Shown: positions 1,379 to 58,599, counted from the stretch's first letter. The stretch is 64,000 nt of DNA from an uncultured Candidatus Saccharibacteria bacterium (GCA_964586255.1 CAZPGE010000001.1:64750-128749), one strand, 5' to 3'. Made by a program: numbers and translations. Notes: a model not told the origin generated them from the letters alone.

Positions 1379-1422
1379 TCTTGGCTCCGCGGGTAGGATT
1401 CGAACCTACGACCAACCCGTTA

Positions 1423-1998
1423 CACGTATCCTCTCGTTACTGAAAGGGGTGGACTATATCATCATCCAGCTCCAGTTTTGGTTCGTCGTTTCGATGAACC
1501 AAAACTGGGGCTGGATGCGAGGCGCTTCCGGTCTTTCAACCGTACTCCCTTGCGGGATAGTCTCTACACCTTCCCCGTCATCGACGGGGCTTGGCTCGGG
1601 ATTGCCCGCGCTTACGCGCTAGGGTTTCCCCGAATTCACCTCGTTTTTCAACCGAAATTACTTTCGGAAGCTGCGTCATGCCGTCGTGCACTTCTGAATG
1701 GCAATTTGCACAGAGCAGGACGCATTTGTCCAACTCGGCGCGCATCTTTTCCCATGATCTCGTAAGGCCGCGCATTGAAAGACCAAAGTCTTTCAATCGG
1801 GGATTGAGATGATGGAATACGAGCGCTCTTTTACTGCGGTTGTACCCGCAAACAAAGCATTTGCCTCCACCGTATGCTAGGGCCATGTCGCGAAGCTTCC
1901 TTCGTCTGGCAGCAACGGCTTTCTTCAGATAGTCAGCACGGTCGGCATAGGTGCGCGTGTCTGGCATACACTAGTGAGTATACCATCGTGTGCGCTCC
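1423..1998 (-). mobile_element. Putative group I intron (tRNA anticodon-loop insertion) carrying an HNH homing-endonuclease ORF
   Basis: The 576-nt insertion sits between the tRNA halves. The upstream exon ends in U and the insertion ends in G, as at group I 5' and 3' splice sites. It contains an HNH ORF in the same orientation as the tRNA. The ribozyme core was not verified. Confidence 0.5.
1578..1967 (-). CDS. HNH endonuclease (intron-encoded homing endonuclease-like)
   Basis: Carries the motifs CFVCGY...LVFHHLNP...CVLLCANCHSEVH (C-x2-C, HH, N, C-x2-C-H), an HNH nuclease signature. It lies wholly inside the tRNA-Asn insertion. Confidence 0.7.
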   Translation of the reverse strand: MPDTRTYADRADYLKKAVAARRRKLRDMALAYGGGKCFVCGYNRSKRALVFHHLNPRLKDFGLSMRGLTRSWEKMRAELDKCVLLCANCHSEVHDGMTQLPKVISVEKRGEFGETLARKRGQSRAKPRR

Positions 1999-15770: not shown

Positions 15771-15844
15771 GGGCCTTTAGTTCAGTGGTAAAACGCCGCA
15801 TTCGCATTGCGGAGGCGGGGGTTCGATTCCCCCAAGGTCCACCA
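15771..15844 (+). tRNA. tRNA-Ala(CGC), CCA encoded
   Basis: Acceptor stem GGGCCUU/AAGGUCC has a G3:U70 pair (Ala identity). Anticodon loop is UU-CGC-AU and the T-loop is UUCGAUU. Confidence 0.75.
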
Positions 15845-15845
15845 G

Positions 15846-17102
15846 ATGTACGACACTATTATAGTCGGGGCGGGAGCTGCGGGACTGATGGCAGCGAGAG
15901 AGCTGTCTAGGACGGGTAAGCGCGTACTTATACTTGAGGCGCGCGACCGTGTTGGCGGAAGAATCTATCCGCTCTCAGAAAAAGAGTTCGGATATGAGGC
16001 TATGGGTGGCGCGGAATTCGTGCATGGGCCGGCGCCCGTAACATCGGCACTCATTGAGGAAGCGGGGCTCACTATGCAACATCCTACGGAATGGTGGAGC
16101 GTACTCGACGGTGAACCGACGATTTCGGAACGACCGTCCGTTCACAAGGCTCCGCTTGAAGAGAGACTGAAGGCATTGACGATAGACATGACAGTCATGC
16201 GGTTCCTCGACATGTACTTTCCGTCTCCTGAGCATGACGACCTGCGGGAATTTATGCTCCAGTGGGTCGAGGGTTACGATGCGGGTGATCCCGAAAAATC
16301 GAGTGCATTTGCAGTACGGGACGAGCTTCTGCTTGCAGGCCAGTGGCAGCAACGAAACCTGCGAGAGGGATACGGGGCACTCATCGCGTTTCTTGAAAAA
16401 GATATACGAGCACATTCCTGCGAGATACTTCTGCAAAATGAAGTCAAACATATAGATTTTTCCGGTAATCGCGTGCGCGCGCTTACCAGTGCCGGGGAAT
16501 ATGAAGCAGATCGTGTAGTCGTGACCGTACCACTGCCTCTCATTGCGCGAATCTCTTTCAATCCCCCAATCCCAATGAAAATCGAGGCCGCGGCGAAAAT
16601 AGGTTTCGGGTCGGTCATCAAGATACTTTTACGCTTTCGTTCGAAGTGGTGGGGCGGCGTCCGTGAGAAAAAATTTGAGAATCTATTTTTTCTGTTTTCA
16701 AGAGAAGAGATACCTACGTGGTGGACTCAGTATCCCGAGCCGCATACGACACTTACCGGTTGGGTGGCCGGTCCGCGCGCGCGCCGCTTACGCGCTAAGA
16801 CGAAAGAAGAACTTGAAACGCTCGCCCTCGGTTCGCTCTCAAACATATTTGGAGTTTCTACGGAATTTCTCCGGCGCGAACTCATAACCTGCAAAGCAAT
16901 CGACTGGGACAACGATGTGCTTGCACTCGGTGCATACAGCTACGCCACGCCGGATACGCCGGAGGCTTTGAGAGAATTGGCTAATCCGGAATCGGGCAAA
17001 GTTTTCTTCGCGGGAGAGGCGGTGGCGACCAGCGAAGGTCAGGCTACTGTCGAGGGAGCGTTTGCAAGCGGTAGGGACGTCGCGCGTTCAATTAATTCAT
17101 GA
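15846..17102 (+). CDS. FAD-dependent amine oxidase family oxidoreductase
   Basis: N-terminal dinucleotide-binding motif IIVGAGAAGLMAARELS...VLILEARDRVGGRI, typical of flavin amine oxidases. The ATG starts 2 nt after the tRNA-Ala 3' end. Confidence 0.65.
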   Translation: MYDTIIVGAGAAGLMAARELSRTGKRVLILEARDRVGGRIYPLSEKEFGYEAMGGAEFVHGPAPVTSALIEEAGLTMQHPTEWWSVLDGEPTISERPSVHKAPLEERLKALTIDMTVMRFLDMYFPSPEHDDLREFMLQWVEGYDAGDPEKSSAFAVRDELLLAGQWQQRNLREGYGALIAFLEKDIRAHSCEILLQNEVKHIDFSGNRVRALTSAGEYEADRVVVTVPLPLIARISFNPPIPMKIEAAAKIGFGSVIKILLRFRSKWWGGVREKKFENLFFLFSREEIPTWWTQYPEPHTTLTGWVAGPRARRLRAKTKEELETLALGSLSNIFGVSTEFLRRELITCKAIDWDNDVLALGAYSYATPDTPEALRELANPESGKVFFAGEAVATSEGQATVEGAFASGRDVARSINS

Positions 17103-17562
17103 GCCAGATAGTGCCGTTGAGAATTGCGGCAAACGCTATCCACACGGCGTAGGGCACGAGGAGCCACGCTGCCGTGCGGTCGATGTCGCGAGCGCCCACG
17201 ATAAGCATCACGACGCACCAGAAGAGGAAAAGTATTTCCACAAACGCGATAAAAAGCGCGTGAAATCCAAAGAAGAATATTGACCACGCGGCATTGAGCA
17301 GTAAGTGGCAGAAAAAGAGGGGAACCCAGCCGCGCATCTCGCTCGCATGCGGGTCTTTTTCCCAGACGATGTAAAGCGCGCTCGCCATAAGGCCATAGAG
17401 CACAAACCACACCGGAGCAAAAACCCAATCAGGCGGTGTGAAAAAAGGCTTCTCGAGTGTGGCGTACCACGTGCGCACGCCGTCTTGAACAAAAATAGAA
17501 CCAAGAAAACCGGCACCGTAGGAGGCGAGGATGGAAACACCGAGGTGTACCCATGAGCGCAT
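17092..17562 (-). CDS. tspO: TspO/MBR family tryptophan-rich sensory protein
   Basis: WYATLEKPFFTPPDWVFAPVWFVLYGLMA matches the TspO signature. Five TM helices. TATACT lies just upstream of the ATG, so the mRNA may be leaderless. Confidence 0.75.
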   Translation of the reverse strand: MRSWVHLGVSILASYGAGFLGSIFVQDGVRTWYATLEKPFFTPPDWVFAPVWFVLYGLMASALYIVWEKDPHASEMRGWVPLFFCHLLLNAAWSIFFFGFHALFIAFVEILFLFWCVVMLIVGARDIDRTAAWLLVPYAVWIAFAAILNGTIWLMN

Positions 17563-17652
17563 ATTCACAGTATAGCGCCCCACTGATGGAGTGTGTCAAG
17601 CGAGCGTGTCTAACTTGAGAATAGGTTTCATTTGCGCCATAATCTCGTTCAC

Positions 17653-17726
17653 GCACCCTTAGCTCAGTTGGTTAGAGCGTTCGATTCACATTCGAAAGGT
17701 CTCAGGTTCGAATCCTGAAGGGTGCA
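17653..17726 (+). tRNA. tRNA-Val(CAC), CCA not encoded
   Basis: Cloverleaf GCACCCU...AGGGUGC-A with anticodon loop UU-CAC-AU. Confidence 0.75.
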
Positions 17727-17898
17727 CAGCGACGAACGAGTGCGCCCTGCGGCGCAATCGCTCGCGCTGTGCAAGGCGGAGCGATGTCTCACGAGCTTGT
17801 GAGACCGCGAGCCGGGGTCGCGGAATTTCCGAGTGACGACGAGGAAATATTCGTGACCACAAGTTATGCAATAAGATGTCCGGAGTGATGTTTTTGGT

Positions 17899-17972
17899 CG
17901 GGCCGTAGTATACCGGTAGTACGTACGATTCGGGTTCGTGAAGACCGGGTTCGATTCCCGGCGGCCCGACCA
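17899..17972 (+). tRNA. tRNA-Pro(CGG), CCA encoded
   Basis: Cloverleaf CGGGCCG...CGGCCCG-A-CCA with anticodon loop UU-CGG-GU and a 4-nt variable loop. Confidence 0.75.
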
Positions 17973-17993
17973 AGAACATCACGCATGAGGTAG

Positions 17994-18064
17994 CGGGCCG
18001 TAGTATACCGGTAGTACGCATGGCTGGGGGTCATGTAGACCGGGTTCGATCCCCGGCGGCCCGA
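17994..18064 (+). tRNA. tRNA-Pro(GGG), CCA not encoded
   Basis: Same acceptor and D arm as the neighbouring tRNA-Pro. Anticodon loop CU-GGG-GG. Confidence 0.7.
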
Positions 18065-18100
18065 AAGAAAATGGTGAACCAGAACTGCTATAATCGCGGC

Positions 18101-19057
18101 ATGGATTTCAGCATCTTCTCCTTAGGATCCAACGACGCACTCGCCGAGAAGATTGCGGGGCACATGGGCGTAAAGCTTGGCGCGATAAAGACCAAGGTCT
18201 TTTCCGACGGGGAACAGCAGGTGCAGTTTCTTGAGAATCTTCGCGGCAAGAATGTATTCCTTGTGCAGTCGACGAATCCGCCGGCAGACAATTGGGCACG
18301 GCTTTTTCTGGCTCTCGATGCGGCGCGCGGCGCCTCTGCCCGCGAGATTACAGCTGTCGTGCCGTATTTCGGCTACGCGAGGCAAGATAGGAAGTCGAAG
18401 CCGCGCGAGCCGATATCGGCGAGAGTTTTTGCGACGACACTCGAGGCGCTTGGAGCCGACCGCCTGCTCACGATGGATTTGCACAACGACGCGATAGGCG
18501 GATTCTTTCGCACGACCAATGTCGACTACCTTTACGCGCGCCCGGTGCTCATCAATCATTTCAAAGAAGTGTTCAAAGATGCCCTAGCGGCTGACGAATT
18601 TGTGGTGGTGTCGCCAGACGCAGGAGGCGTGGTGCGTGCGCAATCGTACGCAAAGCGACTCATGAAAGATGCAGAGCTCGCTATCATTCACAAAGAACGT
18701 GATATTCCCAATCAAATAGCTCGGATGAAACTTATCGGCGACGTGCAGGGGAAGGTCGCGCTCATTATCGACGATATGGCCGACACATGCGGTACGCTCG
18801 CACGCGCTGCCGCGCTCCTTAAAGAGAGCGGTGCCAAGGAAGTGTACGCCGCGACCACGCATGGCGTACTGAGCGGCAAGGCGAAAGAGACTATCGACGA
18901 ATCTCCAATATCGAAGCTCTTTATTACTGATACGATTTCGACGGAGAGGGAACTCTCGCCGAAAATTGAGGTCGTGTCAGTTGCCGGGATATTTGGTGAT
19001 GCCATACAACGCATCGAAAGCGGGGAGTCGTTGAGTGCTCTTTTTGAGGTAGAATGA
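18101..19057 (+). CDS. prs: ribose-phosphate pyrophosphokinase (PRPP synthetase)
   Basis: MDFSIFSLGSNDALAEKIAG aligns with the Prs N-terminus. AVVPYFGYARQDRK is the PRPP synthetase signature. Confidence 0.9.
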   Translation: MDFSIFSLGSNDALAEKIAGHMGVKLGAIKTKVFSDGEQQVQFLENLRGKNVFLVQSTNPPADNWARLFLALDAARGASAREITAVVPYFGYARQDRKSKPREPISARVFATTLEALGADRLLTMDLHNDAIGGFFRTTNVDYLYARPVLINHFKEVFKDALAADEFVVVSPDAGGVVRAQSYAKRLMKDAELAIIHKERDIPNQIARMKLIGDVQGKVALIIDDMADTCGTLARAAALLKESGAKEVYAATTHGVLSGKAKETIDESPISKLFITDTISTERELSPKIEVVSVAGIFGDAIQRIESGESLSALFEVE

Positions 19058-19061
19058 CGGT

Positions 19062-19343
19062 ATGGAAACACCGCGCCGCGATAGGCATGAGGGGAGCCAG
19101 CTCGACATCGCGCAGGAGGTACGCGCCGAGGCAGCCACATATCTTGAGGACAATGCAGAGTTGAGGGAGAACGTCTTGGGGTGCAAGAGTGCGGTCGAAG
19201 TCCGCGAGAAGATTCTCTCTCATTTTGATTTCCCCACAGAGTTCAATGCTTCACCGTCGCCGATTCTATCGGAGTTGCAAAAGGCGGTACTTGCAGAAGC
19301 GGTCGGCACTTGGAATGCGCAGCGCATCGCTGAGAGTCAGTAA
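19062..19343 (+). CDS. hypothetical protein
   Basis: ORF immediately downstream of prs. No motifs. Confidence 0.35.
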   Translation: METPRRDRHEGSQLDIAQEVRAEAATYLEDNAELRENVLGCKSAVEVREKILSHFDFPTEFNASPSPILSELQKAVLAEAVGTWNAQRIAESQ

Positions 19344-19348
19344 TTCGT

Positions 19349-19368
19349 TTCCTCTCGGCCGGAGTCGA
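19349..19368. repeat. 20-nt direct repeat of the tRNA-Arg 3' end (T-loop plus acceptor), 112 bp from the tRNA. att-site-like footprint.
   Basis: ttcctctcggccggagtcga is identical at 19349-19368 and at 19481-19500, inside the tRNA. Confidence 0.6.
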
Positions 19369-19481
19369 GTCAGGAATATTTCTTTTGCCGTCGCAAAAGA
19401 AATTTCACGACCCTGGCTCGCACTCACACGTGCTCGTGTGGGACCCGCTGCGCCCGTTCGATTCCAGACGTAAGCTACGCT

Positions 19482-19553
19482 TCCTCTCGGCCGGAGTCGA
19501 ACCGACATCAATCCCTTCGGAGGGGACTATCCTATCCATTGAACGACGAGAGG
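19482..19553 (-). tRNA. tRNA-Arg(CCG), CCA not encoded
   Basis: Minus strand reads CCUCUCG-UC-GUUC-AAUGGAUA-GGAU-A-GUCCC-CUCCGAA-GGGAU-UGAU-GUCGG-UUCGACU-CCGGC-CGAGAGG-A. Acceptor, anticodon and T arms are good. The D stem includes two G-U pairs. Confidence 0.65.
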
Positions 19554-19632
19554 TCTCTCGTACTATAGGCGAGCTCGTTATGCACTCCAAATCTAATCCC
19601 GCGCGAATCTGCGTCTCTGGTACTATATCGAT

Positions 19633-20109
19633 ATGAATCCGCAGACCAAGACCACCACGCTTATCGGCATCCTTGTCGTCCTCACTATCGTAGCCGGGCT
19701 TCTTATCTCGCTTTCTAATATCGCCAAGCAGCAGCGCATCCTTTCTATCAATACATTTGAGGAGTGCGCGCTCGCTGGGTATCCGATTGCGGAGTCATAT
19801 CCTGAGCAATGTCGCACGCCCGACGGCAGGATGTTCGTCAATGACAAACAGCTCCCTGTTTCAAATGAGCCCGATGGGCTCGGTATGTCGGCCAATGGGT
19901 GCGCCGTAGCGGGCTGCAGTGGGCAACTCTGTGTATCAGCCGATGAGGCGGGCTCCGTCATCACCACGTGTGAGTTCAAAGCCGAATATGCGTGCTACCG
20001 CGAAGCATCGTGCGAGCCGCAGACAGACGGGAAGTGTGGCTGGACCGAGACCAGAGAGCTCAAACGCTGCCTCGCAAATCCTCCCGCGTTTACGCCGGAG
20101 GCCAACTAA
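19633..20109 (+). CDS. secreted or membrane-anchored cysteine-rich protein (hypothetical)
   Basis: N-terminal TM or signal segment followed by a domain with 10 Cys. Confidence 0.45.
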   Translation: MNPQTKTTTLIGILVVLTIVAGLLISLSNIAKQQRILSINTFEECALAGYPIAESYPEQCRTPDGRMFVNDKQLPVSNEPDGLGMSANGCAVAGCSGQLCVSADEAGSVITTCEFKAEYACYREASCEPQTDGKCGWTETRELKRCLANPPAFTPEAN

Positions 20110-20198
20110 CCTCCGTTTACATTGGGTTCTCAGTATTTCATATTGTAAGGATCGTATAATACGAACCCGGCGCGAGCGCCGGGTTTGATGATGTCGGA

Positions 20199-20609
20199 TT
20201 ACCGAGTCCGGAATAATTGCGCGCTGTCCATCGCAATCATATGTTGTTCGAGCCCGATGATGATCTTACGAAGGAAGATAGCAGTTCCTCGCAAAGCGTC
20301 CTTATCGAAGGTGCCGCTGATCGCGCCGTCAATAACTGCAATGTGATCGAGAAAGCTTTGATTCCGGGCTGACTCGTCGGTGCGGAGTTTCAGGGCCACG
20401 TCGATCTTGCGGCGAATATTGTTTCCTTTCTCGGGTCCGCGCTCCATGCGCCGAAGCACGTTCAGTCGCGCGAGGACCAGGTTCGCGAGGGTGGGATCGA
20501 GACTTTTCCGACCACTCTGATTGTTGGCCAGATCTTCTAGCTGGACGGCGAGCTCATTGAGCGCCTCGACGTCCGGTTTCGACCGGGGTGTGTCGTCACT
20601 TTCTGACAT
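20199..20609 (-). CDS. hypothetical protein
   Basis: Start MSESDD has GAGGAAGG upstream. No family recognised. Confidence 0.45.
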   Translation of the reverse strand: MSESDDTPRSKPDVEALNELAVQLEDLANNQSGRKSLDPTLANLVLARLNVLRRMERGPEKGNNIRRKIDVALKLRTDESARNQSFLDHIAVIDGAISGTFDKDALRGTAIFLRKIIIGLEQHMIAMDSAQLFRTR

Positions 20610-20794
20610 CCGATACCTTCCTCGATTGAGTTGATGACTGTACATCTTATAGAACATTAATAGCAAAATGTCAAACTGTCTTCTTCGCGGACTGATTGAA
20701 GTCTGCTAAGATGTCGCTCTAAGGGCCTATAGTGGGTATATAGGCCGCTCGAAAAAAATGAGAATACATAGTATTCTCACTTTGTTTCTCGCTA

Positions 20795-20865
20795 GGGCCT
20801 ATAGTTCAGCGGTAGAATGCGTCCATGGCATGGACGAGGTCGGGGTTCGACTCCCCGTAGGTCCA
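20795..20865 (+). tRNA. tRNA-Ala(GGC), CCA not encoded
   Basis: Acceptor GGGCCUA/UAGGUCC has G3:U70. Anticodon loop is AU-GGC-AU and the T loop is UUCGACU. Confidence 0.75.
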
Positions 20866-20911
20866 CTAAAAATAACGAGGACAATGCGTAGCATTGGCCG
20901 ACTTTATTTTC

Positions 20912-29256: not shown

Positions 29257-29304
29257 GAAATGTCGCTGGTAAATTGTGAGATTTTTTGTACTATTTGCGC
29301 GACT

Positions 29305-29376
29305 GGCCCCATCGTCTATCGGCTAGGACACATCCTTCTCAAGGATGGAAGCGGGGTTCGATTCCCCGTGGGGTCA
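29305..29376 (+). tRNA. tRNA-Glu(CUC), CCA not encoded
   Basis: Acceptor GGCCCCA/UGGGGUC-A, anticodon loop UU-CUC-AA, T loop UUCGAUU. Confidence 0.7.
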
Positions 29377-29537
29377 ATGACTACAGAAATCCTGCTCTGC
29401 TGCAGGATTTCGGAGCATTGACGGGCGCAGCGTTGTGAGCATAGAAGGGCGAACCGCGAGCCGGGGCCGGCGACCAAAACTCGCTGACGAGCGAGTTTTG
29501 AGTTGTGGGCCAGGCAAGTGATGTTACTGTTGCTAAT

Positions 29538-39912: not shown

Positions 39913-39916
<4 letters not shown>
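39323..39916 (+). CDS. rdgB: non-canonical purine NTP pyrophosphatase (RdgB/Ham1 family dITP/XTP pyrophosphatase)
   Basis: IATKNAGKVPE...FGYDPIF...SHRARA are Ham1/RdgB motifs. It is embedded in the atp operon. Confidence 0.8.
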
Positions 39917-41714
<1,798 letters not shown>

Positions 41715-46156: not shown

Positions 46157-46684
46157 TTAGTTGGGATTCGGTGCTCCGCCGGAAGCGCTCGCGGACGCGC
46201 TGGAGACACCGACGCCGACGCCGATGGCGCTGCCGCCATAGCCGACACCCGTACCGCCGCTCCCGCCGAAGCCGAGGCCAAGACCGCCGTCACCGCCTCG
46301 CGCTCGCGCGGAGTTGATGTTCACCGGAGACGCACTCGCTCGCGAGCGGACATCGATGTTCGATGTGTTCGCGACATTGGTCGTCGCCGGCCGCAGCAAT
46401 GCTCCCGCGCCAGCAGTACCGGCACCGACAGCGATACCCGCCACGGCTCCCTTGAGCGCAGAAGGCACGACGCCTTCCGAAGCGGCCGTATTGATTGGCG
46501 CGACCTGACCCGTAGGACCGAGCGCGACAATCGTCGTGGTCGGCGGGCTCACGCCGTCGCCGGACGTTTCGATGGCGGCGACGGGAGTGCCGTTGGACAG
46601 CACGCCCTCCGTAATCGTGAGACGCGAACAAGCCCCAGACAGAACGCTCGCTGCGATGGCGAGGCACAGAAACAATCTGTTCAT
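46157..46684 (-). CDS. lipoprotein with Gly/Ser/Ala-rich C-terminal tail (hypothetical)
   Basis: Signal peptide plus lipobox LSGAC, then a low-complexity G/A/S-rich C-terminus. Confidence 0.5.
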   Translation of the reverse strand: MNRLFLCLAIAASVLSGACSRLTITEGVLSNGTPVAAIETSGDGVSPPTTTIVALGPTGQVAPINTAASEGVVPSALKGAVAGIAVGAGTAGAGALLRPATTNVANTSNIDVRSRASASPVNINSARARGGDGGLGLGFGGSGGTGVGYGGSAIGVGVGVSSASASASGGAPNPN

Positions 46685-46817
46685 TGTATTTCCCCAAGTT
46701 TTCCGCGCACCCTGATGACGCGCTGCTTGCATAGTAACACGTACAGGACTATACGTCAATCCTGAGCGAAGGGAGGACTACATGCTATGCTTTATGCATA
46801 TAAGCCTAGGAGCACAT

Positions 46818-47767: not shown

Positions 47768-47799
47768 AGAACCGCCTGCATGCGCAGGCGGTTCTTTTA
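47768..47799 (+). terminator. Intrinsic terminator between the membrane protein gene and leuS
   Basis: agaaccgcctgc-atgc-gcaggcggttct followed by tttat. Confidence 0.6.
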
Positions 47800-47831
47800 T
47801 GGCACAACAGGGCGTGTTACGCTGGTCTGCA

Positions 47832-50800
47832 ATGCAGTACGACCACCGGAAAATAGAGAAAAAGTGGCAGGACCTCTGGGCACGCAACAAGATATACACG
47901 ACGGTCGACCAGGTGCCGGGCAAAGATAATTTCTACCTGCTGGTCGAATTTCCGTATCCGTCGGGCAATCTCCACGTCGGACATTGGTACGCGTTTGCGG
48001 TACCCGATATTTTTGCGCGTTTCAATCGCATGCAAGGGAAAAACGTAATGTACCCGATTGGATTTGATGCGTTTGGACTTCCGGCAGAGAATGCCGCGAT
48101 AAAAAATAAGCTCAATCCTCGCGAATGGACTGAGAAAAATATTGCACACATGACGACCCAGATTGAATCGATGGGTACGATGTTTGATTGGTCGCGTCAG
48201 GTTTCCACTATCGATCCCGCGTACTACAAGTGGACACAATGGCTTTTCTTGCAGCTCTATAAGAAGGGATTGGTCTATCAGCGGGAGACTGCGGTAAACT
48301 GGTGTCCGACCGATAAGACGGTGCTTGCGAACGAGCAGGTGACAGACGGAAAGTGCGAGCGCTGTGGTGCTGAGGTGCAGCAGAGGCAGATGCTGCAGTG
48401 GAATATCAAGATTACCGATTATGCAGACAGACTCATAGACGACCTGGAGGCGCTCGACTGGCCCGAGCAAATAAAGGAGTCGCAGAGAAATTGGATAGGA
48501 CGTAGCGAGGGTGCCGAAATAGATTTTGCCCTTGATATGGGGGAAAAGTTCAAGTTTGTCATCCTCCACGGCTTTGAGAGTGGCCCCGATCGCCCGCGCT
48601 GGGTGTGGGCAAAAGCGAAGCTCGAGGAAATGGGTCACGAGGTGATTATCCCCGCACTCCCGAATCCGGGTGCGCCGACTGAGCGCGAGTGGGTGGAGAC
48701 AGCGCTTGCGGCTACATTGTACGATGAGCACACCGTGCTCGTCGGACATAGTCTCGGCGCAGTAGCAGCCCTAAAAGTGCTCGAGAAATTGGAAACACCC
48801 ATCGCGCGCCTCGTTACGGTCGGCGGGTTTGTCAGCAAGAATTTCAAGGACAACCCGCGTCCGTTTGAGAAGACATTTGTATGGAAATTTGACGGTGAGA
48901 AGATACGACAGAATGCTCGCTCAATCACAATCCTGCACGACCCGCGTGACTATGCTGTCTCGGAAGCGCAGGCTAAGGAGCTTGCGGACTTATTGCAGAC
49001 TCCTCTCACTATCGGCACCTCGAATAAGCCTCACTTTACGGGAGAGACGGAGCCCGATGTTGTCATGTGGCTTCGACCCACAATCCGCGTATTTACCACG
49101 CGCCCCGATACGCTCTTTGGCGCGACGTACCTCGTGCTTGCGCCAGAGCATCCGTGGGTAAAGCTCTCCCTTGAGCACGCGAATGTACTGAAAAACAATG
49201 ACGAGGTTCAAAAATATGTTGATGCGTCGTCAAAGAGGAGTGACCTAGAAAGACAGACCGATCAAAAGGATAAGACAGGGGTGAAGCTCGAGGGTGTGGA
49301 GGCACTGAACCCGGCGACGGGAGAGAAGATTCCGCTGTATGTCGCGGATTACGTACTCGGCCACTATGGTACAGGCGCAATCATGGCGGTGCCCGCACAT
49401 GACGAACGCGACTTTGAATTTGCGAAGAAATTTGGTCTGCCGATACGAGAAGTCGTTGCATCGATAGCGCGAAGCATGCCTCCACGCGAGGATGCCGTAC
49501 GTGAGAGCGAGAAGTTTCAGGAACGGGATGCGGTTATGTGCATCGTGAAGCACTGGCAGAAGGACGAGTACCTCTGCATTCAGTGGCGAGATTTTGACGT
49601 GCGAACTTTCATATCAGGGGGAGTTGAAGCAGGGGAGACACCTGAGCAAACAGGCCTGAGAGAGATACGTGAAGAAACAGGGTATCTAAATCCGAGATTC
49701 GTGCGCCGGGTGGGTGGCACATCGTATATCGAATTCTATCATCGCGCGAAAAAAACAAACGTTCGAGCTCGATTCAGTTATTTGTATTTCGAGTTGCAAA
49801 ATGAGGAAAGTGAACCGATGTCGGAGGAAGAGTCGGCGAAACACACTGTCGTGTGGAAGAAGCCTGAAGAAATACTAAGTTTTCTCACTATTTTGGAGAG
49901 AGAGCGTTTGTGGAAACTTTTTAACGGAGGCGAGTCACCATACTCAGGAGAGGGAGCGCTGATGCAATCGGAGGAGTTCAACGGCATGAATACTGGTGAT
50001 GCGCGGAAGGCGATGACCGAGAAATTTGGTCGCATGAAGAAGACGTATAAGCTTCGCGACTGGGTGGTCTCGCGCCAGCGTTACTGGGGTGTGCCGATAC
50101 CAATGATTCACTGCGCGAAGTGCGGCGCGCAACCCGTACCCGACGAGCAGCTGCCAGTGGTGCTTCCCGATGTCGAAGATTATCTGCCGGAGGGGAGCGG
50201 TAAATCTCCACTCGCGAAAGTGGATTCTTTTGTGCACGTAAAGTGTCCACAATGCGGTGCCGATGCGCAGCGTGAGACGGACACATTTGATACATTCGTC
50301 GACTCTTCATGGTATTTCCTGCGCTATACCGACTCGCAGAATCCGCAAGAGTTTGCGGCGAAAGCAAAGCAGGATAGCTGGATGCAGGTGGATCTCTACT
50401 CAGGCGGCGCAGAGCACACGACCATGCACCTGCTCTACAGCCGATTCTGGCACAAGGCGCTCTATGATTGCGGTCTCGTGGCAGACCCTGAGCCGTACGC
50501 ACGGCGCATGAATCGCTCGCTTATCATGGGGCCGGACGGCCAAAAAATGAGCAAGTCGAAGGGTAATGTCATCGACCCAGACGAAGTCGTGGCCACACTC
50601 GGCGCCGATACGGTACGCATGTACCTTGCGTTTATAGGCCCATACAACGAGGTCTCCAGCTACCCGTGGAATCCGGATGCGGTAGTCGGCGTCCGCCGTT
50701 TCCTTGAGCGCGTATGCAGACTTTCCGAGAAGCTTGTCGACGAGGGGGGAAACGATGCAGCGCTTCACAAGACGGTAAAGAAGATGTCGGATGATATACC

Positions 50801-51203
50801 GAAACTAAAATTCAACACCGCTATTTCTGCACTGATGATATTCGTCAATGAAGCGGAAAAGCGCGGTATGACAAAAGACCAATTTGCTCGCTTTGTCCGT
50901 CTGCTCGCGCCATTCGCGCCCCACGTCTCCGAAGAACTTTGGGAGCAGCTCGGCAATACCGGGAGTATTCACTTGGAAGCATGGCCGACATATGAAGACA
51001 AGTATCTTATCGACGACACGGTGTCGATGGCTATCCAGATTGATGGCAAGACACGCGGTGAAGTGTCTGTCGCAGCAGATGCTGACAAGGAGACAGTGGA
51101 GAGAGCGGCACGAGAAGTCGTCGCGGCGCGATTGGAAGGTCAGAAAGTCGCCCGTGTCGTCGTGGTACCAAGGCGATTGGTCAACTTCGTGCTGGAGAAT
51201 TAG
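47832..51203 (+). CDS. leuS: leucine--tRNA ligase carrying two inserted domains: a YdeN/RBBP9-like alpha/beta serine hydrolase (~48530-49080) and a NUDIX hydrolase (~49455-49960)
   Basis: Canonical LeuRS blocks are all in one frame: HVGH (HIGH) motif, TTRPDTLFGATY, AVPAHDERDFEFAKKFGLPI, WVVSRQRYWGVPIP, and KMSKSKGN. Between them lie ILHGFESGP...GHSLGA (serine hydrolase) and GGVEAGETPEQTGLREIREETGY (Nudix box). Total is 1124 aa against ~820-860 aa for a typical bacterial LeuRS. Confidence 0.85.
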   Translation: MQYDHRKIEKKWQDLWARNKIYTTVDQVPGKDNFYLLVEFPYPSGNLHVGHWYAFAVPDIFARFNRMQGKNVMYPIGFDAFGLPAENAAIKNKLNPREWTEKNIAHMTTQIESMGTMFDWSRQVSTIDPAYYKWTQWLFLQLYKKGLVYQRETAVNWCPTDKTVLANEQVTDGKCERCGAEVQQRQMLQWNIKITDYADRLIDDLEALDWPEQIKESQRNWIGRSEGAEIDFALDMGEKFKFVILHGFESGPDRPRWVWAKAKLEEMGHEVIIPALPNPGAPTEREWVETALAATLYDEHTVLVGHSLGAVAALKVLEKLETPIARLVTVGGFVSKNFKDNPRPFEKTFVWKFDGEKIRQNARSITILHDPRDYAVSEAQAKELADLLQTPLTIGTSNKPHFTGETEPDVVMWLRPTIRVFTTRPDTLFGATYLVLAPEHPWVKLSLEHANVLKNNDEVQKYVDASSKRSDLERQTDQKDKTGVKLEGVEALNPATGEKIPLYVADYVLGHYGTGAIMAVPAHDERDFEFAKKFGLPIREVVASIARSMPPREDAVRESEKFQERDAVMCIVKHWQKDEYLCIQWRDFDVRTFISGGVEAGETPEQTGLREIREETGYLNPRFVRRVGGTSYIEFYHRAKKTNVRARFSYLYFELQNEESEPMSEEESAKHTVVWKKPEEILSFLTILERERLWKLFNGGESPYSGEGALMQSEEFNGMNTGDARKAMTEKFGRMKKTYKLRDWVVSRQRYWGVPIPMIHCAKCGAQPVPDEQLPVVLPDVEDYLPEGSGKSPLAKVDSFVHVKCPQCGADAQRETDTFDTFVDSSWYFLRYTDSQNPQEFAAKAKQDSWMQVDLYSGGAEHTTMHLLYSRFWHKALYDCGLVADPEPYARRMNRSLIMGPDGQKMSKSKGNVIDPDEVVATLGADTVRMYLAFIGPYNEVSSYPWNPDAVVGVRRFLERVCRLSEKLVDEGGNDAALHKTVKKMSDDIPKLKFNTAISALMIFVNEAEKRGMTKDQFARFVRLLAPFAPHVSEELWEQLGNTGSIHLEAWPTYEDKYLIDDTVSMAIQIDGKTRGEVSVAADADKETVERAAREVVAARLEGQKVARVVVVPRRLVNFVLEN

Positions 51204-52681
51204 CGAGCGCGCACTTGCGGACCCTCTGGGCGGTCGTCGACCGTGTAGCCTTTTTCAAGCAGTGCAGAGCGAAGCTCGTCGGCACGTGACCAATTTTTGT
51301 CGGCACGAGCCTGCTCACGCTCTTCGAGTATGAGTAAAATGTCCTCTGGCAAATCCTGTGTATCCACTGCTCGGCCAAACTGCGCCGCAGAAAGCGAAAC
51401 CGCGAGCTCATCATCTTCGGCGAGCTTCAGGCCAAGAATCTTGTCGATGTCGGCGATAGTGGCGCGCATGTCCGCGGGAGACACGGAGGCGTCTTTCGTG
51501 AGCTCCCATATGCACGATAGTGCGCCCGGTGTATCGAGGTCATCGTCGATGCGCTCGAGTATTGCCGCGAGGTGTTCATCGTGTGGGCGACCGCCTTCCG
51601 GAGCGCTCTGTACAAGCGTGCGGAGGCGTAGGAATGCAGTCTGAGACGCCTCAAGTGCATCCCAAGAGAAATTTGCATTGGAACGATAGTGCGCACCGAG
51701 GTAGAGGTACCGGAGCGCGAGAGGGTGAAAGCCTTTCGCTACTACATCGGCAAGATAGACGACGTTGCCCTTCGATTTCGCGAGTTTACCGCCGGCGAGC
51801 TGTATGTGTGCACGGTGGAGCCAGAAGCGAGAGAGCGGCTTTTTGCCCGTTGCCGCCTCAGATTGCGCGATTTCGTTGTTGTGATGCACGGGAATGTGCT
51901 CGATACCACCGGTGTGAATGTCTATTTGCTCACCGAGCGTACGACGTATCATCGCGGAGCACTCTATATGCCAGCCGGGAAAACCCTGACCCCAAGGAGA
52001 GTCCCAGCCGATCTTTTTGTCGAGTTTCCAAAGTGCAAAATCGGTCGGATGTCTCTTGCCTGAGACCGTGGCGACGCGCGCACCCTCTTTTAGGCCAGCG
52101 AGGTCGATACCACCAAGTGCGCCGTACTCGGGAAAGCGCGATGTGTCGTAGTAGACACCGTCATCGGTCGAGTATGCGTAGCCCTTTTGTTCGAGCGATT
52201 CAATCATCGCAATCTGTGCAGGAATGTAGTCACTCGCGCGCGGAAATTCGATGCGAGTGGTATCTATGTTGAGCGCGGCGATATCTTCTAGAAATGCGGC
52301 GGTGTATTTCTCTGCAAGCGTGCGCATATTCTCGAGTGTGGGCTTCATATGCTCACGCTTGAGACCTTTGGTCATCTTGTCCTCGCCCTCGTCGGCATCG
52401 GATGTAAGGTGGCCCACGTCGGTGATGTTGATGACCTGCTTCACGGGGAAACCGTGGTATTCGAGCGTTCTGCGCACAAGGTCCGCAAAAACAAACATCG
52501 AGAGGTTACCGATATGCTGCGTGTCATAGACAGTCGGACCGCAGTTGTACATCCGAACAGATTTCACTGTCGCTGGAAGATCAAAACGCTGCACTTCCTT
52601 GGTGAGCGTGTTGTACAGAAAGAGGGGAGAGCTCGTCGGGGCCACCGGCTTCCTGCGAAAAGATAGAAAGGGCAACATCAT
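51200..52681 (-). CDS. cysS: cysteine--tRNA ligase
   Basis: CGPTVYDTQHIGN (HIGH) and KMSKS-like LAKSKGN are present. N-terminal start is uncertain (52681 or 52717). The 3' end overlaps leuS by 4 nt, convergently. Confidence 0.85.
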   Translation of the reverse strand: MMLPFLSFRRKPVAPTSSPLFLYNTLTKEVQRFDLPATVKSVRMYNCGPTVYDTQHIGNLSMFVFADLVRRTLEYHGFPVKQVINITDVGHLTSDADEGEDKMTKGLKREHMKPTLENMRTLAEKYTAAFLEDIAALNIDTTRIEFPRASDYIPAQIAMIESLEQKGYAYSTDDGVYYDTSRFPEYGALGGIDLAGLKEGARVATVSGKRHPTDFALWKLDKKIGWDSPWGQGFPGWHIECSAMIRRTLGEQIDIHTGGIEHIPVHHNNEIAQSEAATGKKPLSRFWLHRAHIQLAGGKLAKSKGNVVYLADVVAKGFHPLALRYLYLGAHYRSNANFSWDALEASQTAFLRLRTLVQSAPEGGRPHDEHLAAILERIDDDLDTPGALSCIWELTKDASVSPADMRATIADIDKILGLKLAEDDELAVSLSAAQFGRAVDTQDLPEDILLILEEREQARADKNWSRADELRSALLEKGYTVDDRPEGPQVRAR

Positions 52682-52756
52682 TGAGCACAGTATGACCGTA
52701 ATGAGGCCCTGCTTCAAGTGCTGCTGGGCGACGTGGTACGATATTCAACAACAGAC

Positions 52757-58104: not shown

Positions 58105-58599
58105 ATGCACACCATTCGCCGTTTTGGAACGTGGCTTTCGCTCACACTTATATGGCTCGCGAGCGCTTCTCGGTACTGGCTCACCGTCTCAAACGAAAGA
58201 ATTCGCGGAGCGCGCATAATCATCATCGATGACAGGCGCGTGCTCCTTGTCTCTCATTGGTATGCGCCGTGGGCGTGGACACTGCCGGGTGGTGGCGTTA
58301 ACAAAAATGAATCGCCGGAAGACGCGGCGATGCGTGAAGCGTTTGAAGAGACTGGCCTCAAGGTGCGCTCTCTTGGCGGTGAGATTGGACAGTATCAAGG
58401 CACCTGGGGTCGCCACGACCTCATCGCCGTGTACTGGTCGGGCGATTTCGAAGGCTCACTCGCCCTCAAGCCAAATCTGGAAATCATGGCACGCAGCTGG
58501 TTCGACATCGATAATCTTCCGGAAGAAATATCTCCCGCAAATCGCCGCCGCATCGAAGCGTATCGGGATGGAAAGAGGGAAGAGAGGGGGAAGTGGTAA
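58105..58599 (+). CDS. NUDIX hydrolase
   Basis: Nudix box GGGVNKNESPEDAAMREAFEETGL. Confidence 0.8.
   Translation: MHTIRRFGTWLSLTLIWLASASRYWLTVSNERIRGARIIIIDDRRVLLVSHWYAPWAWTLPGGGVNKNESPEDAAMREAFEETGLKVRSLGGEIGQYQGTWGRHDLIAVYWSGDFEGSLALKPNLEIMARSWFDIDNLPEEISPANRRRIEAYRDGKREERGKW

Follow-up and report, generated by a model that had tools for sequence, protein, structure and literature searches.

The closest described relatives of the protein discussed here are the bacterial leucyl-tRNA synthetases (LeuRS) of Thermus thermophilus (structures 1h3n and 2byt) and Escherichia coli (4aq7). They share with it the class Ia layout, the HIGH and KMSKS motifs, a CP1 editing domain with its TTRxDT and HDxRD motifs, and the anticodon-binding and C-terminal domains. 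We analyzed a leuS gene at positions 47832..51203 (+) of a 64,000-nucleotide stretch of DNA from an uncultured Candidatus Saccharibacteria bacterium (GCA_964586255.1 CAZPGE010000001.1:64750-128749), which is called the window below. The gene encodes a bacterial-type LeuRS of 1123 amino acids with two nested domains. Unlike the T. thermophilus LeuRS, this enzyme carries two enzyme domains, of 182 and 148 residues, in CP1 loops that comprise ~5 and 0 residues in T. thermophilus, and it is without the leucine-specific domain. The first insert is an alpha/beta serine hydrolase of the type of Bacillus subtilis YdeN and human RBBP9, and the second is a Nudix hydrolase domain. Synthetases that have gained an extra domain have been described before. 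Mukai et al. (2017) reported fusions of TyrRS-B2, LysRS and TrpRS in the Candidate Phyla Radiation (CPR) (PMC5370408), and the NCBIfam model NF040702 describes an IleRS with an N-acetyltransferase (GNAT) domain. These cases concern other synthetases and other domains. The average protein of the CPR is smaller than that of other bacteria (PMC9297842), and because of this the enlarged LeuRS stands out. A previous sequence-only reading of this gene had presented it as a chimeric LeuRS and knew of no described LeuRS with this architecture. Our search of the full-text literature agrees on the second point, as it found no published account of a LeuRS with a nested Nudix or YdeN-type hydrolase. Apparently, the nesting of small hydrolases in LeuRS is widespread but has not been described, while aminoacyl-tRNA synthetases (aaRS) with accessory domains are already known.

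The gene is part of one unbroken open reading frame (ORF) that was called in the window at 47799..51203 (+). Translation from the ATG at 47832 gives 1123 residues and a stop codon, and homologues of 1120–1150 residues start at the same methionine. The in-frame upstream ATG at 47799 appears to be a less likely start codon. Homologues were collected by a search of 5.8 billion proteins, and the best 120 of them (58–88% identity) were aligned with the window protein using MAFFT, which gave 121 sequences. In an NCBIfam scan of the whole protein, TIGR00396 (leuS_bact) scored 951.7 bits (cutoff 548.4), and the T. thermophilus LeuRS 1h3n aligned to the window protein with an E-value of 1.5e-209. The N-terminal half of the Rossmann catalytic domain and the first CP1 beta-strand (GRSEGAEIDF) are encoded at 47832..48536 (Pfam tRNA-synt_1 at residues 11–222; T. 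thermophilus residues 4–237); all segments of the gene given here are on the plus strand. The HIGH motif reads HVGH (residues 48–51, 47973–47984), and its H48 and G50 are invariant in the 121 sequences. The main part of the CP1 editing domain (residues 418–553, 49083..49490) was recognized by Pfam as tRNA-synt_1_2 at residues 417–548 with 185 bits. It contains the threonine-rich peptide TTRPDT (residues 422–427, 49095–49112), where T423, R424 and T427 are present in 121 of 121 sequences, and the AHDERD motif (residues 522–527, 49395–49412), where D524 and D527, the conserved aspartates of GTGxxMxVPxHDxRD, are present in 120 of 121. The last part of CP1 and the remaining half of the catalytic core follow at 49935..50540 (residues 702–903; T. 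thermophilus residues 375–582). The KMSKS loop, the anticodon-binding domain and the C-terminal domain occupy 50541..51200 (Pfam Anticodon_1 at residues 977–1088). K905, M906, S907 and K908 of the KMSKS motif (residues 905–909, 50544–50558) are invariant in the 121 sequences. Between these two segments the alignment jumps from T. thermophilus residue 582 to residue 638, which corresponds to the missing leucine-specific domain (T. thermophilus 582–638). The motifs for synthesis and for editing are intact, and by its sequence the protein looks like a functional bacterial LeuRS from an ultra-small CPR bacterium that resembles Kaiserbacteria. Thus, the TIGR00396 and Pfam matches and the motif positions confirm the earlier claim of a genuine in-frame LeuRS with all landmark motifs. 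In L003, L004 and ~27 of the 121 sequences, the CP1 motif is shorter by one residue (GALFG-DAHDERD or GAVFA-DAHDERD, not GAIMAVPAHDERD). Both editing aspartates are retained in this shorter variant, which is the equivalent of window residues 512–530.

The first insert comprises residues 236–417 (48537..49082, +). Its borders were set by the alignment to 1h3n, which has residues 237–243 at this place. It sits in the first CP1 beta-hairpin, five residues ahead of the threonine-rich editing peptide. When the whole protein was scanned with Pfam, Abhydrolase_6 (32.0 bits, cutoff 26.3) and Ser_hydrolase PF06821 (24.4 bits, cutoff 22) were found at residues 243–422. The insert scanned alone gave 29.3 bits for PF06821 (cutoff 22) and 33.3 bits for PF12697. 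A single-sequence query of the PDB with this insert found B. subtilis YdeN (1uxo) with an E-value of 8.5e-12 and RBBP9 with 4e-9. With a family-profile query these values were 1e-20 for 1uxo and 9e-20 for RBBP9, over residues 5–171. YdeN (1uxo) and human RBBP9 (2qs9, 7oex) belong to PF06821; they are compact alpha/beta hydrolases of ~180 residues with an HG oxyanion motif, a GxSxG motif, an acid and a His-Phe motif, and the insert shares these features along its full length. The oxyanion motif is H246-G247, with H246 present in 119 of 119 sequences. The nucleophile of the Ser-Asp-His triad is S307 in GHSLG (48750–48752), and S307 and G309 are likewise found in 119 of 119. For the acid, D370 and D373 (48939–48950) are the candidates: D370 is kept in 118 of 119 sequences, and position 373, which aligns with D138 of RBBP9, is D or E in 119 of 119. 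The catalytic histidine H401 (49032–49034) has no exceptions (119/119). Unlike YdeN and RBBP9, the window hydrolase is nested within another enzyme and is without the residues that anchor the alpha-amine in RBBP9. Instead of these anchors, its family keeps D340 (100/119), R343 (112/119) and D354 (111/119). Judging by the aligned residues, the catalytic machinery of RBBP9 is common to the insert and its specificity site is not. A second site for a YdeN-type hydrolase in LeuRS was found at ~767 (query coordinates) in P0195 and P0215.

The second insert, a Nudix hydrolase domain, comprises residues 554–701 (49491..49934, +) and falls between T. thermophilus residues 374 and 375 in the alignment to 1h3n. 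It is located in the variable CP1 loop that follows AHDERD...LPIREVV. In the Pfam scan of the whole protein, NUDIX was found at residues 567–681 with 47.7 bits (cutoff 21.1, E-value 2e-12), and the insert alone scored 52.4 bits. The Nudix box matches the consensus GX5EX7REUXEEXGU exactly (GGVEAGETPEQTGLREIREETGY, 49617–49685, +). Its G596, E611, E614, E615 and G617 are present in 107 of 107 sequences, R610 in 105 and E602 in 102 of the 107. Outside the box, Y/F636, L655, E667 and W675 are conserved positions specific to this subfamily. Modeled alone with AlphaFold2, the insert takes the alpha/beta/alpha Nudix fold with a predicted local distance difference test score (pLDDT) of 93.3 and a predicted TM score (pTM) of 0.86. 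A Foldseek comparison of this model with the PDB gave 497 matches at E<=0.001, and the best 50 of the 497 are all Nudix proteins. The best match is 2azw, an uncharacterized Nudix protein of Enterococcus faecalis (TM score 0.82). The other neighbors include the Ap4A (diadenosine tetraphosphate) hydrolase of Aquifex 3i7u, the diadenosine polyphosphatase MutT1/Rv2985, RppH bound to Ap4A, CT771 and NUDT2. The top PDB match by sequence is also the Aquifex Ap4A hydrolase 3i7u, with an E-value of 7e-5. The insert shares the Nudix box and the fold (TM score 0.64–0.82, query-normalized) with the Ap4A/NpnN hydrolases and RppH (aq_158 3i7u, M. smegmatis MutT1/Rv2985, E. coli RppH, CT771, NUDT2). However, it is only 15–21% identical to these proteins and scores below the equivalog thresholds, and its subfamily is nested in aaRS or lies upstream of leuS.

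The sequence-only reading had placed the hydrolase at ~48530–49080, the Nudix domain at ~49455–49960 and the Nudix box at 49614–49688. Pfam and the T. thermophilus alignment bear out the first module, and Pfam, the fold and the box bear out the second; the box proved right to within a few bases. The domain scans recovered tRNA-synt_1, Anticodon_1, Ser_hydrolase/Abhydrolase and NUDIX where this reading expected them. It had also suggested modeling the inserts and looking for the architecture in related genomes. An AlphaFold2 model of the full-length protein (113 sequences) reached a pLDDT of 90.0 and a pTM of 0.77, and the inserts fold as confident discrete domains (pLDDT 89–97). The models show two CP1 surface loops, each of which is predicted to carry one whole hydrolase that folds on its own and keeps its active site intact. 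In the alignment of the top 120 homologues, both inserts are found in 105 sequences, the hydrolase alone in 14 and the Nudix domain alone in 2. The homologues come from many independent assemblies (NCBI, JGI, ENA, Logan) of Kaiserbacteria, Paceibacterota, Parcubacteria and Minisyncoccota, and more than 100 independent homologues or sequence clusters have the same architecture. Thus, the LeuRS of the window is not one of a kind: these clusters already exist in public databases, where automatic annotation has named them, for example, 'leucyl-tRNA synthetase/predicted esterase YcpF', 'NUDIX domain-containing protein' or 'alpha/beta fold hydrolase'.

The rate of evolution is higher in the inserts, whose mean pairwise identity is 0.42–0.47 vs 0.63–0.79 for the core. 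Compared with L081, a syntenic orthologue with 88% identity, the ratio of nonsynonymous to synonymous substitution rates (dN/dS) is 0.040 for the hydrolase, 0.049 for the Nudix domain and 0.019–0.051 for the LeuRS segments. The comparisons with L001 and L002 could not be used, as their synonymous sites are saturated, and the L081 pair alone was informative. Purifying selection acts on the two inserts as strongly as on the synthetase core. We also assessed whether the architecture might be an artefact, that is, a misassembly, separate genes joined by frameshifts, or inteins. The ORF is continuous, the GC content shifts only gradually over the insert boundaries (0.45–0.58), and more than 100 independent assemblies have the same architecture, with synteny in L081. 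This rules out a misassembly, a frameshift and a chimera. In the Pfam scan of the protein (E<=0.01) no Hint or intein family was found, and the insert junctions (ALD|MGEKF...WLRPT|IRVF and MPPRE|DAVRE...FNGGE|SPYSG) are without splice residues. Inteins are thereby ruled out, and the earlier view that these are domain fusions holds. Degenerate inserts or pseudo-enzymes are ruled out by the invariant catalytic residues and the dN/dS of 0.04–0.05. Taken together, the invariant catalytic residues, the selection, the fold and the independent homologues lead us to reject all of these readings, and the chance that the architecture is an artefact is practically negligible.

We used a profile of the Nudix insert against 1.84 billion representatives and obtained 131 clusters (50% identity) at E<=1e-30. 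Among the best 150 profile matches, the multi-domain hosts are nearly all LeuRS. In query coordinates, these LeuRS carry the Nudix domain at ~207–221 (one or two copies), at ~545, which is the site of the window (in tandem copies in P0139), and at ~805–815 (a single copy). Up to three NUDIX domains, confirmed by Pfam, were found at different sites of one LeuRS (P0121). In total, LeuRS of the CPR and of metagenome-assembled genomes (MAGs) resembling gut Bacilli carry one to three nested copies of this subfamily, at four or more different sites. In the GTDB genomes, the CP1 site of the window holds the Nudix insert with an intact Nudix box and without the hydrolase in LeuRS of other Parcubacteria, Paceibacterota and Moraniibacteria. 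The same CP1 insert is also found there in many gut MAGs labeled 'Bacilli/Tenericutes/Scybalousia' and in MAGs labeled Nanoarchaeota/Woesearchaeota. The boundary of the subfamily is sharp: its members score 104–216 bits, whereas other Nudix genes in these genomes score 13–25 bits. In five clusters of ProRS (P0253, P0272–P0275; ~641–674 residues) from independent assemblies, a Nudix domain of the same subfamily follows the anticodon-binding domain and precedes the C-terminal domain. The closest relatives of these ProRS without the insert are labeled as DPANN archaea (Nanoarchaeota/Woesearchaeota). The association of this Nudix subfamily with aaRS is, at the level of sequence, specific to the subfamily and repeated. 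The second copy of P0132 scores 161 bits with the free-standing protein P0193 vs 122 bits with the best other insert, and the second copy of P0121 scores 179 bits with P0147 vs 143 bits with its sister copy. Since copies at different sites often resemble free-standing proteins more closely than they resemble their sister copies, the comparison points to independent captures of the Nudix domain at different LeuRS sites. For the same reason, the origin of multiple copies by duplication within the gene is disfavored. In a rough neighbor-joining tree of 775 core columns, calculated without support values, the Nudix-bearing LeuRS are polyphyletic, and the forms with the hydrolase, with the Nudix domain and with both are intermixed. 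This crude tree disfavors a single ancient insertion inherited vertically. L005 and L022 are bacterial-type LeuRS with a nested Nudix domain in MAGs labeled Woesearchaeota and Nanoarchaeota; L005 also has the hydrolase and is 39% identical. Either mis-binning or gene transfer between CPR and DPANN could explain these archaeal labels.

The subfamily also includes free-standing proteins, which are encoded by real genes on contigs of up to 381 kb. We examined the context of ten of them. In the orthogroup of P0143, leuS is the next downstream gene on the same strand in 3 of 3 members with usable context. P0143 itself ends 1 nucleotide before a gene for a 951-residue LeuRS that carries the CP1 Nudix domain. 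P0393 and P0394 precede insert-free LeuRS of 807 (L088) and 828 residues, respectively. P0147 belongs to a MetRS...Nudix-LeuRS cluster (L085), and P0141 lies near ProRS. A 145-residue Nudix protein encoded directly upstream of leuS in L085 was considered as a further member; it does not match the profile, and only P0147, further upstream, does. The ORF after P0395 was considered as leuS and turned out to be epimerase-like. A Flavodoxin_2-YchF neighborhood is common to P0143, P0393 and the window, and the P0143 locus also has a DUF5671 gene, which precedes leuS in the window. The gap between the DUF5671-like gene and leuS in the window is only 81 nucleotides. Therefore, there is no Nudix gene upstream of leuS in the window, and the Nudix domain is within leuS instead. 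The 578-nucleotide gap between the P0393 Nudix gene and the insert-free leuS (L088 5493–6070) has no ORF in the forward frames and could hold a leader or a regulatory RNA. The window has two free-standing Nudix genes of its own, at ~39913–40329 (+) and 58105–58599 (+), which are 60% and 97% identical to their L081 counterparts. They score 13–25 bits with the LeuRS-Nudix profile and belong to different subfamilies. In L081, the first of them follows a Ham1/ITPase gene.

We propose that both inserts are autonomous hydrolases tethered to LeuRS and that the Nudix domain is coupled to the synthetase, where it probably clears by-products of the Ap4A type. We estimate the probability of this explanation at about 50%. 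Neither insert would be a structural spacer; each would work as an enzyme in its own right while attached to LeuRS. The repeated capture by LeuRS and ProRS and the separate gene upstream of insert-free leuS suggest that the Nudix domain may be functionally coupled to the synthetase. It is known that aaRS make Ap4A from aminoacyl adenylate and ATP. In LeuRS, the attack of ATP or ADP on the enzyme-bound leucyl adenylate would produce Ap4A or diadenosine triphosphate (Ap3A), and the Nudix domain would hydrolyze such by-products at source. By-products of the Ap4A type are the leading candidate because of the nearest structural and sequence relatives of the domain and because aaRS are known to make Ap4A. 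Aberrant ATP-like nucleotides may be an alternative target. The serine hydrolase would most likely cleave a small ester or amide. Valacyclovir is the L-valyl ester of a nucleoside analogue. A title cited in PMC7730578 reports RBBP9 as a valacyclovir-activating enzyme. RBBP9 is the sole characterized member of its hydrolase family and cleaves acyl bonds to hydrophobic amino acids whose alpha-amine is free, removing single residues. By analogy with RBBP9, the leading candidate substrate of the insert would be an alpha-aminoacyl ester, such as a mischarged A76 ester, a free aminoacyl ester or a thioester. This is the weakest step of the proposal, because the insert does not keep the RBBP9 anchors.

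A number of observations weigh against this proposal. S76, Y99 and E108, which anchor the alpha-amine in RBBP9, align to L308, F333 and P342 of the hydrolase and are not conserved, and position 342 is variable. The earlier suggestion of an auxiliary deacylation by the hydrolase is strengthened by the family-level analogy with acyl-bond cleavage by RBBP9 and weakened by the missing substrate anchors. LeuRS is not known to be a major producer of Ap4A. The Foldseek E-values of the Nudix model are bunched between 7e-10 and 1e-7, so that the subfamily assignment is weak. In the NCBIfam scan no equivalog cutoff was reached: the window insert scored 24.5 bits with RppH (cutoff 259) and 21.5 bits with MutT (cutoff 148), and the best member of the subfamily scored 39.8 bits against a cutoff of 118. 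Thus, the idea of Ap4A/Ap3A hydrolysis, which the sequence-only reading had raised, is compatible with the nearest structures, which include Ap4A hydrolases and RppH, but it is unproven. The synonymous rate in the L081 pair, the informative one for selection, is near saturation (dS 0.96–2.06). Five of the ten free-standing members examined are located away from any aaRS. Among them, P0182, P0193, P0397 and P0395 show no linkage to an aaRS gene, and P0176 lies directly after Fpg/MutM, which suggests a MutT-like role in the removal of oxidized nucleotides. Finally, modules of other kinds are nested in related LeuRS of the CPR, among them Ham1/ITPase (201 bits), hydrolases of the HAD type including HAD_2, and a DUF559 endonuclease (106 bits), the last of them at the hydrolase site of the window. 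Two further modules have no known family, namely a ~140-residue 'KTIETRA' module at the core site ~767 and a 'GFWNEYVG' module, and another is weakly nucleotidyltransferase-like. The relatives with such modules are P0149, P0191, P0194, P0256, P0160, P0162, P0159, P0172, P0204 and P0217.

Since so many types of modules are found in related LeuRS, a generic explanation that was absent from the earlier reading must be weighed. LeuRS is long, essential and constitutively expressed, with several surface loops that tolerate insertions, and in streamlined symbiont genomes it may be a permissive scaffold in which unrelated house-cleaning enzymes (Nudix, Ham1/ITPase, HAD, esterase) become nested for co-expression or by a local insertion process. 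These enzymes would act on the general pool and have no link to leucylation. The LeuRS family has at least six insertion hot spots, the unrelated modules listed above are in line with hitch-hiking, and the gains and losses on the core tree are patchy and polyphyletic. The two other free-standing Nudix genes retained in the window genome, the Ham1 gene beside one of them in L081, the position of P0176 beside Fpg/MutM, with which MutT is classically paired, and the CPR aaRS fusions noted earlier (PMC5370408) are also consistent with it. However, the Nudix inserts are one sharply bounded subfamily and not random Nudix genes, their hosts among the best 150 profile matches are almost only LeuRS, plus ProRS, and they were apparently captured independently at different sites. 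In addition, the order nudix–leuS is kept where LeuRS is insert-free. This Rosetta-stone pattern, in which the same enzyme is an upstream gene or a nested domain, is our main reason for preferring functional coupling to pure hitch-hiking, and we regard hitch-hiking as a possible but rather unlikely explanation of the whole.

The Nudix domain could also be an RNA-end enzyme, that is, an RppH-like 5'-pyrophosphohydrolase or decapping enzyme for 5'-triphosphate, Np4N-capped or NAD-capped RNA, which the synthetase would bring to tRNA or mRNA. RppH models are the top NCBIfam matches, although weak ones, for nearly all members of the subfamily, and several of the top Foldseek matches are structures of RppH together with RNA or Ap4A. 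However, the scores are at most 39.8 bits against RppH cutoffs of 116–259, and this analysis gave no link of the Nudix domain to RNA binding. The 5' ends of mature tRNA are monophosphates made by RNase P, which also counts against such a role. We consider it improbable. Even less probable is a built-in antidote, in which the nested hydrolases would destroy LeuRS inhibitors that mimic the aminoacyl adenylate (Trojan-horse antibiotics) and would give target-linked resistance. The cleavage of alpha-aminoacyl bonds in the RBBP9 family, the action of Nudix enzymes on nucleotide-X compounds and the recruitment of several hydrolase types to one antibiotic target would fit this idea. Against it, no resistance-type context and no homology to known immunity proteins was found, the substrate anchors of RBBP9 are not conserved in the hydrolase, and the wide spread, which includes MAGs resembling gut Bacilli and DPANN-like ProRS, argues for housekeeping. 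Tethered hydrolases with a Nudix domain coupled to the synthetase remain the explanation that we prefer.

Several other features were found in the window. The cysteinyl-tRNA synthetase gene cysS (51200–52717, -) converges on leuS, the 3' ends of the two genes overlap by 4 nucleotides (51203 vs 51200), and the arrangement is kept in L081. Between YchF and the DUF5671-like gene there is an ORF for a Gly/Ala/Ser-rich protein of 200 residues (46157–46759, -), where the local GC content is 0.65–0.68 vs ~0.54. Its L081 equivalent (191 residues) has no Pfam match. A group I catalytic intron was found at 1430–1713 (-) (Rfam RF00028, 83.3 bits). It abuts the 3' half of a tRNA at 1381–1425 (-), which has the T-arm GTAGG-TTCGAAT-CCTAC, the acceptor strand and CCA. 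Neither trial splicing with ARAGORN nor a motif search recovered the 5' exon of this interrupted tRNA. An ORF at 1578–1967 (-) overlaps the intron. Seven tRNA genes, for Ala-CGC, Val-CAC, Pro-CGG, Pro-GGG, Arg-CCG, Ala-GGC and Glu-CTC, are located in 15771–20866 and 29304–29377, and several of them are clustered at 17.6–18.1 kb.

The editing domains of aaRS are a textbook case of translational quality control, and the CP1 domain of LeuRS is a drug target. Hydrolases that are nested in CP1, under selection and predicted to be catalytically intact make a testable case of new catalysis coupled to a synthetase. They may give a handle on the control of Ap4A-type by-products or on the hygiene of the nucleotide pool in minimal genomes. 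For an uncharacterized Nudix subfamily, they provide a functional link of the Rosetta-stone type, and for protein engineering they provide a useful natural map of sites in LeuRS that tolerate insertions. Even if LeuRS is merely a permissive scaffold, its role as a recurrent host of nested enzymes in the CPR would be an unreported pattern of genome streamlining. A broader idea, which we find doubtful, is that the aaRS of ultra-small symbionts (CPR, DPANN-like ProRS lineages and reduced gut Bacilli) are platforms for an extra layer of quality control that has so far gone unrecognized. The aaRS-associated Nudix domain would destroy adenylate by-products where they are made, and the YdeN-type esterase of Kaiserbacteria would be a second, chemically distinct deacylation site beside CP1. 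If this broader idea is true, it would amount to a new mechanism of proofreading or by-product clearance that is physically built into LeuRS.

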